Shown here one piece after another: positions 1,124-18,668 of a stretch of 47,989 nucleotides of DNA. This DNA comes from Candidatus Giovannonibacteria bacterium RIFCSPHIGHO2_12_FULL_44_22 (GTDB taxonomy: Bacteria > Patescibacteriota > Minisyncoccia > UBA11713 > 2-01-FULL-45-33): assembly GCA_001778695.1 (NCBI GenBank), contig MFHU01000017.1, positions 21,214 to 69,202 of the forward strand. The letters run 5' to 3'. A program made the translations under genes and the position numbers. Under the pieces are notes generated by a model. It was given only the letters and a program-made list of their open reading frames with translations. It was not told the DNA's origin and made no database searches. Numbering within the stretch: position 1 is the stretch's first letter; each line of letters starts with the position of its first letter.

Positions 1124-1812
1124 GCGAACTCGCTTTGTTAGAAGAAAAACTAAATATAAAATTCCAGAATAAAAAACTTTTAGAAGAGGCTTTTACGCAC
1201 CGCTCGTATTTAAACGAAAACCCGGACTGGGCGGGAAACCATAACGAGCGCTTGGAATTTTTAGGAGACGCGGTCTTGGAGTTGGCGGTGACGGAACATC
1301 TTTATTCAAATTTTCCGGATAAAACGGAAGGGGATTTGACGAGCTATCGCGCGGCTTTGGTTAACTCCAACATGCTCGCGGAGTTGGCGCAGGAAATCGG
1401 CTTAAACGATTATTTAATGCTTTCCCGCGGCGAAGCCAAGGATTTGGGGCGCGCCCGGCAATATATTTTGGCAAATACTTTCGAAGCCTTGGTCGGCGCG
1501 ATTCATCTGGACCAGGGTTATCTCGCGGCGGAAAAATTTATCAAAGAAACCGTACTCACTAAAGTAAGCGATGTCATCGCAAAAAAGCTTTTCCGTGACC
1601 CAAAAAGCGTTTTTCAGGAACGGGCGCAGGAAGCCGTCGGGATCACGCCGACATACGAAGTCATGAAAGAATGGGGCCCGGACCACAATAAACATTTCAT
1701 CGTCGGCGTGTATTTGGGCAAGGAGCTTATCGCGGAGGGCGAAGGGCCGTCCAAACAGGAAGCCCAGCTCCGCGCGGCGGAAGAAGGCTTGCGTGTAAAA
1801 AATTGGGCGTAA
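1120..1812 (+). CDS. rnc: Ribonuclease III
   Basis: NERLEFLGDAVL signature plus C-terminal dsRBD (DPKS.FQE...GEGPSKQEAQ). Confidence 0.97.
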   Translation: MSELALLEEKLNIKFQNKKLLEEAFTHRSYLNENPDWAGNHNERLEFLGDAVLELAVTEHLYSNFPDKTEGDLTSYRAALVNSNMLAELAQEIGLNDYLMLSRGEAKDLGRARQYILANTFEALVGAIHLDQGYLAAEKFIKETVLTKVSDVIAKKLFRDPKSVFQERAQEAVGITPTYEVMKEWGPDHNKHFIVGVYLGKELIAEGEGPSKQEAQLRAAEEGLRVKNWA

Positions 1813-7462: not shown

Positions 7463-7498
7463 AAAATAAATTTTCTCTTTTGTCCCGTTCATTCATAA

Positions 7499-7538
<40 letters not shown>

Positions 7539-8456
7539 GATAAGGCATGCAAGTCAAACGGAACTTATTTTGAAGGAGTTGCGATTACATCAAGACAACG
7601 GATTCATAGGTTTAGTGGCAGACGGGGTAGTAACACGTAGGAACATCCCCCAGAGACGGGTATAACTAGCCGAAAGGTTAGCTAATCCCCGATAGTCTCG
7701 TAAGAGTAAATCACTTAGATTGGCTCTGGGAATGGCCTGCGGGATATCAGCTTGTTGGCGAGGTAATTGCTCACCAAGGCTATGACGTCTAGGGGGCGTG
7801 AGAGCGCGACCCCCACCAATGGAACTGAGACACGGTCCATACACCTACGGGTGGCTGCAGTCAAGAACATTTGTCAATGGGCGAAAGCCTGAACAAGCGA
7901 CGCCGCGTGCGGGATGAAGCTCTTCGGAGTGTAAACCGCTTTTATAGGGGAGGAACTAAAGTGACGTTACCCTATGAATAAGGCCTTGCTAACCTCGTGC
8001 CAGCAGCCGCGGTAATACGAGGAGGCCAAGCGTTATCCGGATTTATTGGGCGTAAAGGGTGTGTAGGGGGCATGGTTAGTCTCCGCTTAAATTTTCGGGC
8101 TCAACCCGGAATCCGGCGGAGAAACGGCCAAGCTAAGAGGGTGCCAGAGGCAAATGGAACTCATGGTGTAGGGGTGAAATCCGTTGATATCATGGGGAAC
8201 ACCAAAGGCGAAGGCAATTTGCTGGGGCATTCCTGACCCTGAAACACGAAAGCGTGGGGATCAAAAAGGATCGAAAAGTTCCGTTTACAAGGCGGACTGG
8301 TCCAATTGTGAAGTAATTCGCAATATAAAAACTTGGCTATATCGGGGAACATCTCGCGAAGCGAGACAATCCCGAGGGAAGTTGTGTGTTCAAATTTCTG
8401 GAAAAAGAAAAAGGCGCAGCTGTGCCGAGCCTTGGGAAATCACTGATCGATCTAAG

Positions 8457-8609
8457 TCATCGCTTGGTAGTAGACTCAAGCTTAGCGCATGCCAGAGCTG
8501 TTAGAAAACAGCCTAGTAGCAGCATCGCAAGAGTTGCGAGGGGTCCATACGCGAGGACGGGCTTACTTAGAGCGGTCAAAAGTGTTATTAGAACTCCAAT
8601 TATAACCAT
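8457..8609 (-). CDS. 50-aa hydrophobic peptide encoded antisense in the intron P6 extension (not in ORF track)
   Basis: TTGACA-N17-TATTCT promoter (8655-8627), SD GGAGGT, MVIIGVLITLLTALSKPVLAYGPLATLAMLLLGCFLTALACAKLESTTKR*, then hairpin and U-tract. Confidence 0.75.
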   Translation of the reverse strand: MVIIGVLITLLTALSKPVLAYGPLATLAMLLLGCFLTALACAKLESTTKR

Positions 8610-8854
8610 GGTTCACCTCCGATGCAAGAATACCATGATGGGATTAGAATGTCAAGAAAATTGACTCCAGAAATTTGAACATACAACCCCGTAGAGACTA
8701 TACGCCGAGCTCCTGATTAATTTCAGGATGATGATATAGTCCGAACTCTGCAGCGATGCAGAGAAGCAGATAGAAATATTCTGCTCACTCAAGAATGAAA
8801 ATCGGTGCTAATTTTTGGAAAAAGAAAGGCCACCACTATTAAGTGATGGCGTTC

Positions 8855-8934
8855 GCAAGACGAGAGATCAGATTCGAACTGACATCTAGCAGGGGGTACC
8901 CCGTCGCCTTACCGTTAGACCACTCCCGACTTGC
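8855..8934 (-). ncRNA. tRNA-like RNA encoded antisense in the intron P9 extension
   Basis: 12-bp acceptor-like stem with one mismatch, D-arm GTCT-AACGGTA-AGGC, T-arm GTCAG-TTCGAAT-CTGAT, non-canonical anticodon arm; own promoter and terminator. Confidence 0.75.
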
Positions 8935-9655
8935 ATAAAAAGATTAGCACTAAATACAGTCTATTGTCAATAGACTCCAAAAATTAGCACCGATTACAGA
9001 ATTTCTTGAGGTCCGCCGTCGCTAAAGCTATGGCGGACACAGTAACAAAATGTAGATACCCTTGTAGTCCACGCCCTAAACGTTGATGACTAGGCATCCG
9101 AAGTATCGACCCTTCGGGAGCCGCAAGCTAACGCGTTAAGTCATCCGCCTGGGAAGTACGATCGCAAGATTAAAACTCAAAGGAATAGACGGGGACTCGC
9201 ACAAGCGGTGGAGCATGTGGTTCAATTCGATGGTAAACGAAAAACCTTACCAGGGCTTGAAATGGTTTTGACATTCCAGCGAAAGCTGGACTTCTCACAA
9301 GGACAAAATCACAGGTGCTGCATGGCTGTCGTCAGTTCGTGGCTTGAGTTGTTCCCTTAAGTGGGGTAACGAACGCAACCCCTATCGTGTGTTACAAGTG
9401 TCACGCGAGACTGCCCCGCTCAGCGGGGAGGAAGGCGGGGATGACGCCAAGTCAGCATGGCCCTCTGATGCCCTGGGCTACACACGTGCTACAATGCCGG
9501 TTACAATGGGTCGCGATGCCGTAAGGCGAAGCAAATCCCATCAAAAGCCGGCCCAGTTCAGATTGAGGTCTGCAATTCGACCTCATGAAGTCGGAATCGC
9601 TAGTAATCGCAGGTCAGCTATACTGCGGTGAATACGTTCTCGAGTCTTGTACTCA

Positions 9656-10514
9656 AAATTAAAAGCGCCCGGCAGCTTATATTTCTAGGCCGTTAAAATC
9701 GGTCCCTCCGATTAAAATCGGAGCGTAGCAAACGGATAAGTCCTTGGCCGCGAGGTTGTGGACTGAAGGATCCTATTAGCAAAAAGCAGCCTTATTAGTC
9801 CCCGGCTTGAGTCGGGGAAAGGCCGCGCGACCCATTCGGTGAGTAATGGGGAAGCGCCAAGAAAAGCTTAATGAGGATGTTTGGAAAAGAAATACAAGTG
9901 ACCCGCGGGAGATCTCATAACGCCACTGGAATTATTGCGTTTTGAGAAGTCAGCTGAATCATAGTACTGTGCGTCAACTTATTTTTATGTTAAAATAGGC
10001 GCATGGGAAGGATGAAACCGACGGTTGCAAAAGAATATATTGTTGGGCTTACTGATGGAGAAGGATGTTTCTATGTAAACATATGGAAATCTTCTTTATA
10101 TCGAGCAGGGTTCGGTGTTCAAATGCATTTTCATATAAAGATGCAGGAGAAAGACAGGATGTTGCTCGAAAAAGTGCGAAATACATTAAAGTGCGGCGCA
10201 GTTTATTTTCAAAAAGAACAGCGCCGAAACCACGTTCAATGTTATCGCTATACCGTCAGTGCGCAGCGGGATATCTTCAATACGATAATTCCATTCTTTC
10301 AGCAAAATTCTTTGGAGAGCGCAACAAAGCGCAAAAGTTTTAAGATCTTTTGCCGAATTGCTAATTTGCTTCAAGCAAAAGCGCATTTAACCAAAAGAGG
10401 TTTAAAACGAATATGGAAGCTAAAAAAGCTTATGAATCAAAGAACCGTCGGGCTCGCGTAGTGCGGGAAATCCGCCCGCTACGTGGGAACGCGAAGCATT
10501 CTAACTATCGCAAT
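9656..10514 (+). mobile_element. Group II-like intron near 16S position 1398 (859 nt) carrying a LAGLIDADG ORF
   Basis: Domain V-like CGCGTAGTGCGG-GAAA-TCCGC-CC-GCTACGTG; 3' terminal AT; loop GGTGAGTA (9838-9845) complementary to the ligated exon junction TACTCA|CC. Confidence 0.8.
10003..10461 (+). CDS. Single-motif LAGLIDADG homing endonuclease
   Basis: EYIVGLTDGEGCFYV motif; later IIPFF..N.L...KRKSF.IF and HLT..GL..I..LK..MN are typical of the family. Confidence 0.93.
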   Translation: MGRMKPTVAKEYIVGLTDGEGCFYVNIWKSSLYRAGFGVQMHFHIKMQEKDRMLLEKVRNTLKCGAVYFQKEQRRNHVQCYRYTVSAQRDIFNTIIPFFQQNSLESATKRKSFKIFCRIANLLQAKAHLTKRGLKRIWKLKKLMNQRTVGLA

Positions 10515-10759
10515 CCGCCCGTCAACTCAAGGGAGCCGGGAGTAGATGAAGCCAGCGATTTTCGCTGATTAGTCTAAGCTCGGTGACAGGGAGTAAGTCG
10601 TAACAAGGCACGGCTAGCGGAAGCTGGTCGTGGAGTTTAATTTTTAATTTTTGTGATAAACAAAAGTTAATGTGTCGATTATGCCGTTTCGGCATAGGGT
10701 ATTGGTCCCGCAACCCTAATGCGGGACTGGGACAAAAGAAAAAGTGCTTTAACAAAATC

Positions 10760-11116: not shown

Positions 11117-11188
11117 TGCGTGTGGGAGGGATCGAACCTCCGGCCTCTGTCTTATCAGGACAGCGTTCTACCACTGAACTACACACGC
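11117..11188 (-). tRNA. tRNA-Ile(GAT)
   Basis: Cloverleaf with anticodon arm CTGTC-CTGATAA-GACAG; CCA not encoded. Confidence 0.93.
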
Positions 11189-11511: not shown

Positions 11512-11582
11512 GGGCCCGTAGCTTAGTGGTAGAGCATCCGGTTTGCATCCGGAAAATAGGGGTTCGATTCCCCTCGGGTCCA
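11512..11582 (+). tRNA. tRNA-Ala(TGC)
   Basis: TCCGG-TTTGCAT-CCGGA anticodon arm and G3:U70 identity pair. Confidence 0.93.
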
Positions 11583-16349: not shown

Positions 16350-17411
16350 ATGCTTTTAACTCTTTTTATTTTCCTGATTATTCTTTTGGTTCTTGTGCTT
16401 TCCCACGAAGCGGGGCATTTTTTTACGGCGCGTTTTTTTGGCGTCAAAGTTGAAGAATTCGGCTTTGGGATTCCTCCGCGGATTTGGAGCTTGTGGCGCG
16501 ACAAGCATGATACTCTTTATTCTTTAAATCTTCTGCCTTTCGGCGGATTCGTAAAAATATTTGGCGAAGAGGGCGAGGATGGCGATAGCTCTGGAAGTTT
16601 TGGGTCAAAATCCGCCTCAAAAAGAGCCGTGATACTGGCCAGCGGAGTATTAGCAAATATTATTTTGGCTTTTCTCGCCCTTACTTTGGTAAGCGGTTTG
16701 GGCGTGCCACAAGCCGTTTCCGAAGAAGAAAGCGGCAATTATCTCGACGCCAAAATAACCATTATGGATGTGGCGCCGGATTCGCCGGCGGCACGCGCCG
16801 GAATTATGCCTGGAGACCAGATTTTCGGCTTTCAAAAAATAGAAGACGTGCAGAATTTTATTAAACAAAATAAAGGCAAAAATATCTCACTTTCTCTAAT
16901 TCGGGGAAAAAAGTCGCTTGAAGTGAGCGCGCTTTCCCGCCAAAATCCGCCGGAAGGGGAGGGGCCTTTGGGGGTTGCTCTCGGGCTAGTGCGCGTGAAA
17001 AAATCTCCGTGGTATCTTGCTCCAATAGACGGTGCACGATTTACTTGGGAAATTTTAAAAGGAACAGTTTTGGGATTATGGGATCTTATCCAAAGCCTTT
17101 TTAAAAAAGAGGCCTTGCCTGTTGAAGTTGCCGGTCCAGTGGGAATTTTCAACATAACTTCTTCGGCCATCAATCTGGGTTTTGGCACGCTTCTTATATT
17201 ACTTGCGGTTTTGTCCATTAATCTTTCGTTAATTAATATTTTGCCGTTTCCGGGTTTGGACGGCGGAAGATTATTTTTTCTTTTGATTGAAACTTTGCGC
17301 GGCCGGCGGATTTCTCCAAAAACCAGCGCTCTGGCGCACAGCCTCGGCCTCGCGATTTTAATTATGCTGATGCTAGTGGTAACTTATCACGACATTGCTA
17401 GGACGTTCTGA
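16350..17411 (+). CDS. rseP: Site-2 protease RseP (M50 with PDZ)
   Basis: HEAGH, PDZ DSPAARAG..PGD, NILPFPGLDGG. Confidence 0.92.
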   Translation: MLLTLFIFLIILLVLVLSHEAGHFFTARFFGVKVEEFGFGIPPRIWSLWRDKHDTLYSLNLLPFGGFVKIFGEEGEDGDSSGSFGSKSASKRAVILASGVLANIILAFLALTLVSGLGVPQAVSEEESGNYLDAKITIMDVAPDSPAARAGIMPGDQIFGFQKIEDVQNFIKQNKGKNISLSLIRGKKSLEVSALSRQNPPEGEGPLGVALGLVRVKKSPWYLAPIDGARFTWEILKGTVLGLWDLIQSLFKKEALPVEVAGPVGIFNITSSAINLGFGTLLILLAVLSINLSLINILPFPGLDGGRLFFLLIETLRGRRISPKTSALAHSLGLAILIMLMLVVTYHDIARTF

Positions 17412-17429
17412 CTAAGCTAACATATTCCT

Positions 17430-18668
17430 ATGCGACTTTCGGAATTATTCGCAAAAACAGAGAGGCGGCCTCCTAAAAACGAAGAGTCAAAAAACGCCAA
17501 ACTTTTGGAGCAGGCAGGTTTTATTCAGAAGCTCTCCGCTGGAGTTTATACTTTTTTGCCGTTGGGCCTTCGGGTTTTAAATAAGATAGAAAATATTGTG
17601 CGGGGGGAAATGAATAAAGCCGGCGGGGTTGAAATTTTAATGCCGTCTCTGCATCCCAAAGAAAATTGGGAGATTACCGGCAGATGGCAGGCCTTTGACG
17701 CGCTTTTTAAAACCAAAAGTAATTTCGGCGGAGAATACGCACTAGGGCCCACGCACGAAGAGGTGCTTTATTCTTTACTTAAAAAACACATCAGCTCTTA
17801 TCGCGACCTTCCCGTTTATATTTATCAAATCCAAACAAAATTCAGAGATGAAAAAAGGCCCAAGGCCGGGCTTTTGCGCGCGCGGGAATTTCGTATGAAA
17901 GACCTTTACAGTTTTCACGCGAACGATGAAGACCGTGATAAATATTACGAGGTGATGAAAAAATCTTATGTAGAAATTTTTAAAAAATTGGGTTTAGCGG
18001 CCATTCCCACCACTGCTTCCGGCGGAACTTTTTCGGAGCTTTCTCTGGAATTTCAAGTTGCCTCCGATGCCGGCGAAGACACTATTTATTTTTGCAAGAA
18101 ATGTAATTTAGCAATTAATAAAGAGATTGTCGGTTTAAACTCGCCGAAATGCTCAAATTGCGCGGGGCCGACTAAAGAAATAAAAGCCATAGAAGCCGGA
18201 AATATTTTCCCGCTGAAAGAAAAATACGCCAATGATTTTAATCTGAATTTTAAAGGCGAAGCAGGAAAGGAAAAATTGGTTTCAGCCGGATGCTACGGCT
18301 TTGGAACGTCACGGGTGATGGGAATTATTGCCGAAGTTATGAGCGACGAAAAAGGGCTTATTTGGCCGAATGAGGTCGCGCCTTTCACTCTCCATTTAAT
18401 AGCTGTAGGCGAGTCGCCTAAAGTAAAAAAAGCCGGCGAAAAACTTTACGCCGATCTTATTGCAAGAGGCGGGGAAGCATTGTACGATGATCGCGCGGAA
18501 AGAACCGCCGGAGAAAAATTTGCCGAAGCCGACCTTTTGGGAATTCCATTAAGAGCTGTTGTGAGCGAGAAAACTTTGGAAAAAGACAGCGTGGAACTGA
18601 AAGAAAGAAATTCCGAAACGATTCGGCTGGAAGTTATAAAAACATTTTTAGAAAAATATGATAAATAA
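17430..18668 (+). CDS. proS: Proline--tRNA ligase, short form without editing domain
   Basis: LGPTHEE, YQIQTKFRDE.RP..GLLR.REF.MKD.YSF, GCYGFG.SR. Confidence 0.95.
   Translation: MRLSELFAKTERRPPKNEESKNAKLLEQAGFIQKLSAGVYTFLPLGLRVLNKIENIVRGEMNKAGGVEILMPSLHPKENWEITGRWQAFDALFKTKSNFGGEYALGPTHEEVLYSLLKKHISSYRDLPVYIYQIQTKFRDEKRPKAGLLRAREFRMKDLYSFHANDEDRDKYYEVMKKSYVEIFKKLGLAAIPTTASGGTFSELSLEFQVASDAGEDTIYFCKKCNLAINKEIVGLNSPKCSNCAGPTKEIKAIEAGNIFPLKEKYANDFNLNFKGEAGKEKLVSAGCYGFGTSRVMGIIAEVMSDEKGLIWPNEVAPFTLHLIAVGESPKVKKAGEKLYADLIARGGEALYDDRAERTAGEKFAEADLLGIPLRAVVSEKTLEKDSVELKERNSETIRLEVIKTFLEKYDK

Follow-up and report, generated by a model that had tools for sequence, protein, structure and literature searches.

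The 16S rRNA gene of Candidatus Giovannonibacteria bacterium RIFCSPHIGHO2_12_FULL_44_22, a member of the Candidate Phyla Radiation (CPR), is interrupted by a group I intron in which the extended P6 and P9 helices each enclose a compact unit of predicted expression signals on the minus strand. We analyzed these two units, here termed cassettes, in a 47,989-nt stretch of contig MFHU01000017.1 (positions 21,214 to 69,202 of the forward strand, GenBank assembly GCA_001778695.1), referred to below as the window, and compared them with relatives elsewhere. Features of the intron and its exons are collected in Table 1. An Rfam search of the whole window matched SSU_rRNA_bacteria at 7493-9687. The intron scores 42.9 bits against Intron_gpI (E 9.5e-9), where the curated cut-off is 50 bits; the alignment places a 275-nt insert within P6, which depresses the score. 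Homologous introns without this insert exceed the cut-off, at 65.1 bits for one with an empty P6 (L003) and at 56 bits for another (L012). The 5' exon ends in U (...AGGAT), the intron ends in ...AAAATG and is followed by TAGATACCC, as is typical of group I introns, and the rejoined exons read as continuous, conserved 16S sequence. Intron-less alleles in metagenome contigs join 8271 to 9053. From these exon edges the intron lies after Escherichia coli U788, at an insertion point that we take to be between U788 and U789 of the E. coli 16S rRNA. The minimum-energy fold of the 780-nt intron RNA reaches -279.8 kcal/mol, compared with a mean of -197.1 for 20 shuffled sequences, none of which was as good (z -8.7).

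The arms of the P6 stem are 22 nt long and 95% complementary, with a G.T on the plus strand as the sole non-Watson-Crick pair, and those of the P9 extension are 20 nt long and 100% complementary. Both stems are present in the minimum-energy fold of the intron RNA, which further contains an outer 8-bp helix in the P9 extension and small hairpins at the inner ends of the stems. The left borders read GGAAAAAGAAAAAGGC from 8400 and GGAAAAAGAAAGGC from 8817, and the right border GACTCC occurs at 8663 and 8973. A preliminary description of this DNA, made without database searches, had named the two stems and the common borders. A repeat search recovered the stems at the same coordinates, and the border motifs lie where they had been placed, with a similarity that extends further as direct repeats on the left (8388-8410 versus 8805-8827, 87% over 23 nt) and on the right (8659-8680 versus 8969-8990, 82% over 22 nt).

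Each loop carries what is predicted to be a self-contained sigma-70-type unit, with -35 and -10 boxes separated by 17 nt (P6) or 18 nt (P9) and a hairpin plus U-tract on the same strand. The proposal that both loops hold a full minus-strand unit is supported; its weak point is P6, where the terminator hairpin is weak and was not listed by the terminator scan. The putative ribosome-binding site (RBS) of the P6 unit, GGAGGTG, sits 5 nt upstream of the ATG of an open reading frame (ORF) of 50 amino acids (aa), for which a protein search returned no homologue except itself and which matched no Pfam, PADLOC or PHROG family. Single promoter matches carry little weight, because a simple promoter scan gave 14 sites in 5 kb versus 8.9 in shuffled sequence. 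We also considered the palindromic -35 box as a general operator. This was rejected, since the 643-kb genome contains only four matches, one of which is the P6 cassette, and the box is thus not a genome-wide motif.

The P9 payload is a predicted tRNA-like RNA of 73 nt with an 8-bp acceptor stem containing one U.U, a D-loop GG and the T loop TTCGAAT, and it is drawn as a cloverleaf by ARAGORN and by RNAfold. The Rfam tRNA model matched it at 31.6 bits (cut-off 29) in a 4.6-kb search, and the match is absent from the listing of the whole-window search. Its anticodon arm comprises 14 nt, not 17. ARAGORN assigns a 2-base "anticodon" in a 6-nt loop and RNAfold gives GGGG-UAC-CCCC, neither of which corresponds to the standard 5-bp stem, 7-nt loop and 3-nt anticodon. 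With an arm 3 nt short and no normal anticodon loop, the payload is therefore tRNA-like and not a decoding tRNA. An origin from a resident tRNA was rejected, as the closest of the 36 in the genome is identical to it at 50 of 73 positions. No relatives were found in the 399 other genomes of the class sample, with just two marginal matches of 20-25 nt at E ~0.009. In the 23S rRNA gene of another CPR genome (L053, 1740-2060), a long stem surrounds two sense-strand tRNA-like units with CCA ends, which score 39.2 and 51.6 bits against the Rfam tRNA model; the anticodon loop is aberrant in one of them and enlarged in the other. Thus, tRNA-like RNAs in CPR rRNA insertions are not unique to the window. 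ARAGORN found 36 ordinary tRNAs in the genome of the window (G000), and tRNAs for Trp, Tyr, Lys-UUU, Gln-UUG, Gly-UCC and Pro-UGG were not found, which is likely due to assembly gaps or intron-containing tRNAs.

A recurring frame around variable payloads

Cassettes were gathered from family genomes, contigs of species-representative genomes and metagenome contigs, then pooled and de-duplicated to give a catalogue of 45 distinct cassettes, of which one lacks a payload. The same intron with the same P9 stem is found in three genomes of the family (G003, G013 and G010), in each case around a different unit of promoter, GGAGG, small ORF and terminator as predicted from sequence; G003 and G013 have an empty P6 in the form of a short hairpin. 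Units of stem plus frame also occur at other places in the family genomes. A pattern scan of the species-representative genomes returned 52 loci, with a matching second arm in 18 and not in 34. The 18 two-armed loci lie in records titled Giovannonibacteria, Zambryskibacteria, Paceibacterota, Parcubacteria, Minisyncoccia, "bacterium" or (by label) Saccharibacteria, and nearly all of the 34 one-armed loci in unrelated phyla. Scanning the metagenome contigs with the P9 arm gave 36 loci with 40 pattern occurrences, 31 of which have the second arm; these reduce to 22 different sequences, including one that was read in both directions. In the class sample of 400 genomes, a 15-nt pattern had matches in eight that do not belong to the family, with a real cassette at one of the eight loci (L043), and its reversed-pattern control matched five genomes, so this pattern is too short for genome counts outside the family. 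An 18-nt pattern gave two matches in viral contigs, both within coding sequence and without the second arm. Neither is a cassette, and a phage origin of the cassettes was rejected on this basis.

The search patterns fixed the inner arm and, in one scan, GGAGTCAAG, and were run on both strands; the frame features that follow were counted over the 45 cassettes and were not imposed by these patterns. The exact hexamer TTGACA is found in 41 cassettes and a -35/-10 pair in 39, TG-extended in 30 of the 39 and with a 17-nt spacer in 23. A palindrome, GTCAAG-N-CTTGAC, covers the -35 box in 39 of the 45, and its loop varies between 4 and 8 nt, which fits a hairpin and not a site for a dimeric protein. 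An RBS followed by an ORF of at least 25 aa is present in 37 cassettes. Terminator-like sites are found on the cassette strand in 35 of the 45 versus five on the host strand. The stem measures 20 bp. Its inner 12 bp are nearly invariant across distant lineages, in part as a product of the search, and the outer 8 bp (positions 13-20) covary, with position 13 being G-C in 30 cassettes, A-T in 13 and T-A in one. Read in order, the frame consists of the 20-bp inverted repeat, GGAG(T/C)C, a putative -35 box within the hairpin-forming palindrome and a TG-extended -10 box, usually followed by GGAGG and an ATG, and a predicted one-way intrinsic terminator with a U-tract that abuts the other arm. On another contig of the genome of the window, a third cassette is found in decayed form, upstream of a protein gene (L029, G000:C9 ~17370-17520), in which one arm (CCGATGCTAATTTTTGGA), the U-tract with hairpin and a TTGACA/TG-TATAAT promoter sequence are retained with almost nothing between them; the second arm is absent.

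The payload varies in nearly every copy, and appears to be an orphan protein of 36-76 aa, often of membrane type, or occasionally a small structured RNA. All-against-all blastn found nucleotide similarity in three of 946 payload pairs; it replaced global-alignment identity, which was uninformative with a median of 0.67 for real and shuffled pairs. Among 38 payload ORFs, blastp gave two matching pairs, one being the window's own duplicate. Scans of 37 payload ORFs against Pfam, PADLOC and PHROG returned nothing better than E 0.002, and the scattered hits at this value or weaker are treated as chance. No homing-endonuclease domain (LAGLIDADG, GIY-YIG, HNH or His-Cys) was found in any of the 37, where the positive control, an ORF in a second intron of the same 16S gene, matched LAGLIDADG_1 at E 4.5e-21. 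One or two hydrophobic segments are present in 27 of the 37 ORFs, and many of these have a charged C-terminus, including the 50-aa ORF of the window, a 38-aa ORF from G010 and a 40-aa ORF from G003. Some cassettes, among them P9 of the window, L078 and L053, seem to encode small RNAs. Protein searches with the 73-aa payload of L023 returned itself alone, and with the 66-aa payload of L112 three small relatives. The ORFs of one cassette pair (c16 and c30) differ by six synonymous substitutions and five conservative residue changes over 50 codons, and are more conserved than the spacer between promoter and RBS. A leader cassette (c21) and a P6 cassette (c29) have different arms and homologous, Cys-containing payload proteins, for which the protein collection contains two further relatives. 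The substitution pattern of the former pair and the homology of the latter favour real coding.

Block replacement is seen on comparison with locus L103, which matches the window without a difference over 73 nt of exon 1 and 108 nt of exon 2 (the latter taking in a variable helix), and likewise over the 3' end of the intron and the P9 arms. In L103, a unit for a predicted 62-aa membrane protein takes the place of the tRNA-like unit. Identity breaks exactly at GGAAAAAGAAAG| and returns at |GACTCC, so that both limits of the exchange fall on the border motifs that the preliminary description had put forward. It had also anticipated empty and filled helices with exchangeable payloads among homologous introns, and these are observed: metagenome contigs from four DNA runs contain an empty P6, a P6 with palindrome and U-tract alone, introns without the P9 arm and intron-less alleles. 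Such contigs also show a P9 stem whose borders are just 18 nt apart and which arose from another cassette by deletion (L112/L131). The suggestion of a cassette system at helix tips is supported by the family as a whole, but the system is not specific to P6 and P9 of the 788 intron, and most of the payloads are small proteins. P9 and P6 are both filled in L125/L135, as in the window. In G010 (L004) and L103, the 5' half of the 788 intron has small sense-strand ORFs with GGAG sites and no antisense cassette; one of these ORFs, in G010, is basic, at ~60 aa.

For 39 of the 45 cassettes, rRNA exon sequence is present at a distance of 3.5 kb or less, and all 39 are antisense to the rRNA. As the pattern scans took in both strands, this orientation is not a search artefact. 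The cassettes occupy at least seven sites: for 16S, the leader, an insertion near position ~340, both P6 and P9 of the 788 intron and an intron at ~1400; for 23S, several introns. A single metagenome contig (L112) carries three of them: one in the 16S leader, a payload-less one with arms of the P9 type in the insertion near position 340, and one in P9 of the 788 intron. The remaining six are found between protein-coding genes. Each still has flanks from the 3' end of the 788 intron, and two of them (L119 and L133) also retain 16S exon 2 sequence, which marks the copies outside rRNA genes as remnants of intron fragments. Among these cassettes, two pairs share a locus in different genomes and have different payloads. 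Stems decayed to 16 bp or less are found in three of the six copies outside rRNA genes versus none of the 39 in rRNA operons.

Interpretation and alternative explanations

At the level of sequence, these comparisons establish the recurrence of the unit, the diversity of payloads at an orthologous site, block replacement, the antisense position in rRNA operons and the covariation of the outer 8 bp. We consider it likely that the two inserts in the window belong to a family of autonomous small-gene cassettes located at the helix tips of rRNA operons in CPR bacteria of the Parcubacteria/Paceibacteria type.

Several points weigh against this reading. All that is said here of promoter, terminator, translation and antisense control is prediction; a search for sequencing runs that contain this stretch listed 20 runs of DNA and none of RNA. 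The weak P6 hairpin contains an A.C mismatch on the minus strand and was missed by the terminator scan, although a U-tract does follow it. Because the search patterns contain the letters of the inner arm and of GGAGTCAAG, the conservation of these segments is partly by construction and divergent members will have been missed. Ten of the 37 payload proteins have no hydrophobic segment and eight of the 45 cassettes have no RBS-ORF by the rule used, which argues against any single payload function. G.U pairs favour the host strand weakly, with 11 versus seven A.C in the 20-bp stem. In L119 and L133, the open frames on either side run in the same direction as the cassette; given these loci and the existence of copies outside rRNA genes, antisense control by a host transcript would be neither general nor obligatory. 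Finally, L103 and the window differ across the entire 5' half of the intron as well, so the region may be a general recombination mosaic and not a site-specific cassette system.

We weighed three other explanations. The units could be non-autonomous transposable elements, either miniature inverted-repeat transposable elements (MITEs) or mobile insertion cassettes, with repeats recognized by a transposase in trans and intron helices as tolerated targets. The terminal inverted repeats of 20-22 bp, with an inner 12 bp nearly invariant across distant lineages, would fit such elements, as would the seven or more kinds of site, the presence of P9-type arms on a payload-less unit of L112 in another 16S insertion and the homologous payloads of the leader and P6 cassettes. 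However, a target-site duplication was found at none of the junctions read, and the outer 8 bp are site-specific and covarying, as expected of vertically inherited RNA helices. The 788-intron 3' flanks of all six copies outside rRNA genes point to intron fragments and not to excision by the repeats, and it is in these copies that arms have decayed (three of six, versus none of 39). Across the 20 family genomes, all true arm-pattern matches are cassettes, and no gene of transposase size is flanked by any of them. We therefore regard a transposable origin as improbable. The alternative that the stems are ordinary peripheral helices, with minus-strand signals that are due to chance or are remnants of decayed homing-endonuclease genes, is strongly disfavoured and, in our view, highly improbable. 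Long peripheral extensions are common in group I introns, and the promoter scan finds 14 sites per 5 kb versus 8.9 after shuffling. Against this explanation, 45 units with unrelated payloads repeat the complete series of signals in order. RBS and ATG are present in 37 of the 45, the terminators are asymmetric between strands (35 versus five), no payload matches LAGLIDADG, GIY-YIG or another Pfam family where the second intron yields LAGLIDADG at E 4.5e-21, and the conserved payload pair shows synonymous change.

The membrane-peptide cassettes might instead act in the manner of type I toxin-antitoxin modules, in which a toxic peptide would be held in check by the complementary intron or pre-rRNA as antitoxin, with growth arrest when rRNA synthesis stops or with stabilization of the intron as the outcome. 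A fully complementary host transcript is a geometric certainty for the 39 rRNA-borne cassettes, a gene for RNase III is present in the genome, and hydrophobic segments mark 27 of the 37 payload ORFs, many of which have a charged C-terminus. This explanation appears doubtful to us, since the payloads have no Pfam or PADLOC similarity, known toxin families included, ten of the 37 are soluble, some cassettes seem to encode RNAs and the copies outside rRNA genes have no obvious antisense partner.

For a family of autonomous cassettes, the stem would close the insert off on the rRNA strand, such that the intron or leader could still fold and splicing would take the cassette out of the rRNA. This step is supported by the covariation of the outer stem and by the decay of the stem outside rRNA operons. 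The antisense orientation alone would survive purifying selection, as a terminator in the sense orientation would abort rRNA synthesis, and the antisense bias therefore has a simpler cause than regulation. Payloads may be exchanged by homologous recombination via the conserved borders. During ribosome production, cassette expression would be damped both by rRNA transcription running head-on against it and by the complementary intron or pre-rRNA with RNase III. The idea of the preliminary description that the pre-rRNA or excised intron acts as an antisense regulator, inverse to ribosome synthesis, is not supported in that form; it follows from geometry (39 of 39 antisense) and is offered as a hypothesis. 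Full-length matches to RNase III are found at window 1138-1788 (245.0 bits) and at G000:C2:11928-12605 (245.9 bits); two such genes in a 643-kb genome reflect either a genuine duplication or contamination, which is put at 4.93% for this bin.

Surroundings of the intron in the 16S rRNA gene

A second insertion interrupts the 16S gene at ~9656-10510, after ...CTTGTAC and near E. coli position 1400, with exon sequence again from ~10511 (CCGCCCGTCA...). It contains a sense-strand gene of 152 aa at 10003-10461 (LAGLIDADG_1, E 4.5e-21) and a weak group-II-D1D4 match of 27.9 bits, under the cut-off. This second intron is separate from the cassette finding. Past helix 45 (window 10600-10660), the 16S sequence reads ...GCTGGTCGTGGAGTTTAATTTTT, and the anti-Shine-Dalgarno sequence CCUCC is not recognizable; a search for GATCACCTCCTT downstream of the 16S 3' region, allowing up to two mismatches, found none. 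Its absence contrasts with the strong GGAGG sites of the cassette ORFs. Either a further insertion splits off a tiny last exon, or the tail of this 16S rRNA is unusual. Downstream, tRNA-Ile(GAT) lies at 11117-11188 on the minus strand, opposite to the 16S gene, and tRNA-Ala(TGC) at 11512-11582 on the 16S strand. A gene for a 60-aa DUF5679 protein is located between them, which is an unusual layout for a 16S-23S spacer region.

Table 1 Features of the 16S rRNA exons, the group I intron and its two minus-strand units, in window coordinates.
Feature	Coordinates	Strand	Basis
16S rRNA exon 1	7493-8272	+	Rfam SSU_rRNA_bacteria; end ...AGGAT read from letters
Group I intron, 780 nt	8273-9052	+	Intron_gpI match; last base G, then TAGATACCC
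P6 extension 5' arm, 22-bp stem	8381-8402	+	Repeat search; forms in fold
P6 unit, U-tract (8403-8412) and weak hairpin (8413-8426)	8403-8426	-	Read from sequence
P6 payload, 50-aa ORF with two hydrophobic segments	8457-8609	-	ORF list; hydrophobicity
P6 unit, putative ribosome-binding site GGAGGTG	8614-8620	-	Read from sequence
P6 unit, predicted promoter (TTGACA, 17 nt, TG-TATTCT)	8627-8655	-	Promoter scan
P6 unit, GGAGTC border and 5' half of palindrome GTCAA..TTGAC overlapping the -35 box	8656-8668	-	Sequence reading
P6 extension 3' arm	8666-8687	+	Repeat search
P9 extension outer helix, 5' strand (CUCAAGAA)	8788-8795	+	Fold; pairs with 9003-9010; kept in relatives
P9 extension 5' arm, 20-bp stem	8800-8819	+	Repeat search
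P9 unit, predicted intrinsic terminator: hairpin 8829-8850, tail 8819-8828 (CTTTCTTTTT)	8819-8850	-	Terminator scan; clean
P9 payload, tRNA-like RNA	8858-8930	-	ARAGORN; Rfam tRNA; RNAfold
P9 unit, predicted promoter: TTGACA (8965-8970), 18 nt, TGC-TAATCT (8941-8946)	8941-8970	-	Script scan and sequence reading
GACTCC border (minus strand GGAGTC)	8973-8978	+	Read from letters; homology with L103 restarts here
P9 extension 3' arm	8976-8995	+	Repeat search
P9 extension outer helix, 3' strand (UUCUUGAG)	9003-9010	+	Fold
16S rRNA exon 2	9053-9655	+	Rfam match and sequence reading; begins TAGATACCC

Relation to known systems and implications

A survey of CPR rRNA insertions (PMC11270868) classified ORFs by Pfam annotation only, according to its main text, so that introns such as that of the window would count as ORF-less there; the words "antisense", "promoter" and "tRNA" do not occur in that main text. 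Homing-endonuclease genes are known from peripheral loops of group I introns, and in nuclear rDNA introns some of them are antisense (PMC9548176). The cassettes resemble such genes in that a protein gene is nested in a peripheral helix (P6, P9 or others) of a self-splicing rRNA intron and is gained or lost independently of the ribozyme. Unlike them, the cassettes do not encode endonucleases, have their own predicted sigma-70-type promoter, ribosome site and terminator, are all antisense, hold hypervariable payloads in a conserved frame and are also found in rRNA leaders.

Phage morons are units of promoter, gene and terminator inserted between unrelated genes. They share with the cassettes a self-contained build that is extra to the host context, and diverse passengers that are often small membrane proteins, whereas the cassettes lie in rRNA introns and leaders instead of prophages and have a 20-bp inverted repeat and a conserved promoter frame. 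The Correia elements of Neisseria are promoter-bearing MITEs, and mobile insertion cassettes carry passenger genes; both have terminal inverted repeats that form a hairpin when co-transcribed with a host gene, as the present units would. The cassettes differ from these in showing no target-site duplication at the junctions read and no cognate transposase among the 20 family genomes, in their site-specific, covarying outer arms and in that their copies outside rRNA genes are intron fragments. Integron cassettes are promoterless and expressed from a platform. A fixed platform, exchangeable and mostly orphan small passengers, and a structure-forming inverted repeat with a variable loop are common to both systems, but the cassettes described here have a promoter and terminator of their own, as predicted, lack sites of the attC/attI type and occur as single units and not in arrays. 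In type I toxin-antitoxin modules, a gene for a small hydrophobic protein is overlapped by a complementary RNA from the opposite strand, as described in PMC2887945 and PMC8309996. The cassettes likewise combine a small hydrophobic protein (50 aa with two segments for the ORF of the window) with a complementary RNA from the opposite strand; this RNA would be an rRNA precursor or intron, the payloads have no relation to known toxins and many of them are non-hydrophobic.

Each known arrangement thus shares one or two features with the cassettes and fails on a defining one. Searches of the literature, covering openly available text and abstracts, turned up no account of cassettes in rRNA introns that are antisense and bear a promoter. 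The nesting of genes in intron helices is a known arrangement, and there is a fair chance that the present units deserve the name of a new kind of cassette system. A broader proposal, which we advance tentatively and hold to be possible but short of probable, is that the removable parts of the rRNA operon (intron helices and leaders) in CPR bacteria of the Parcubacteria/Paceibacteria type serve as a dedicated platform for exchangeable mini-genes, the expression of which would be inverse to rRNA transcription by way of head-on transcription and an abundant RNA of perfect complementarity. This would be a new kind of cassette system, like an integron in its logic and like a phage moron in its anatomy but related to neither, and possibly a nursery for orphan small proteins and RNAs in genomes of ~0.6-1 Mb.

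Insertions in CPR rRNA genes, reportedly described by Brown and colleagues in 2015, have so far been read as introns with or without homing endonucleases, and the cassettes represent a second, hidden layer within them. This layer consists of a putative expression frame with dozens of unrelated orphan mini-genes, which are antisense to the rRNA and have been swapped between organisms with identical 16S exon sequence at the flanks. The 16S and 23S insertions of these lineages merit a search for small genes on both strands. If the units are expressed, these ultra-small genomes would gain a hypervariable repertoire of small proteins and small RNAs that current annotation misses, and gene expression may be coupled to ribosome synthesis by geometry alone. 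Gene turnover, and possibly gene birth, could then be traced in a natural system with defined borders.

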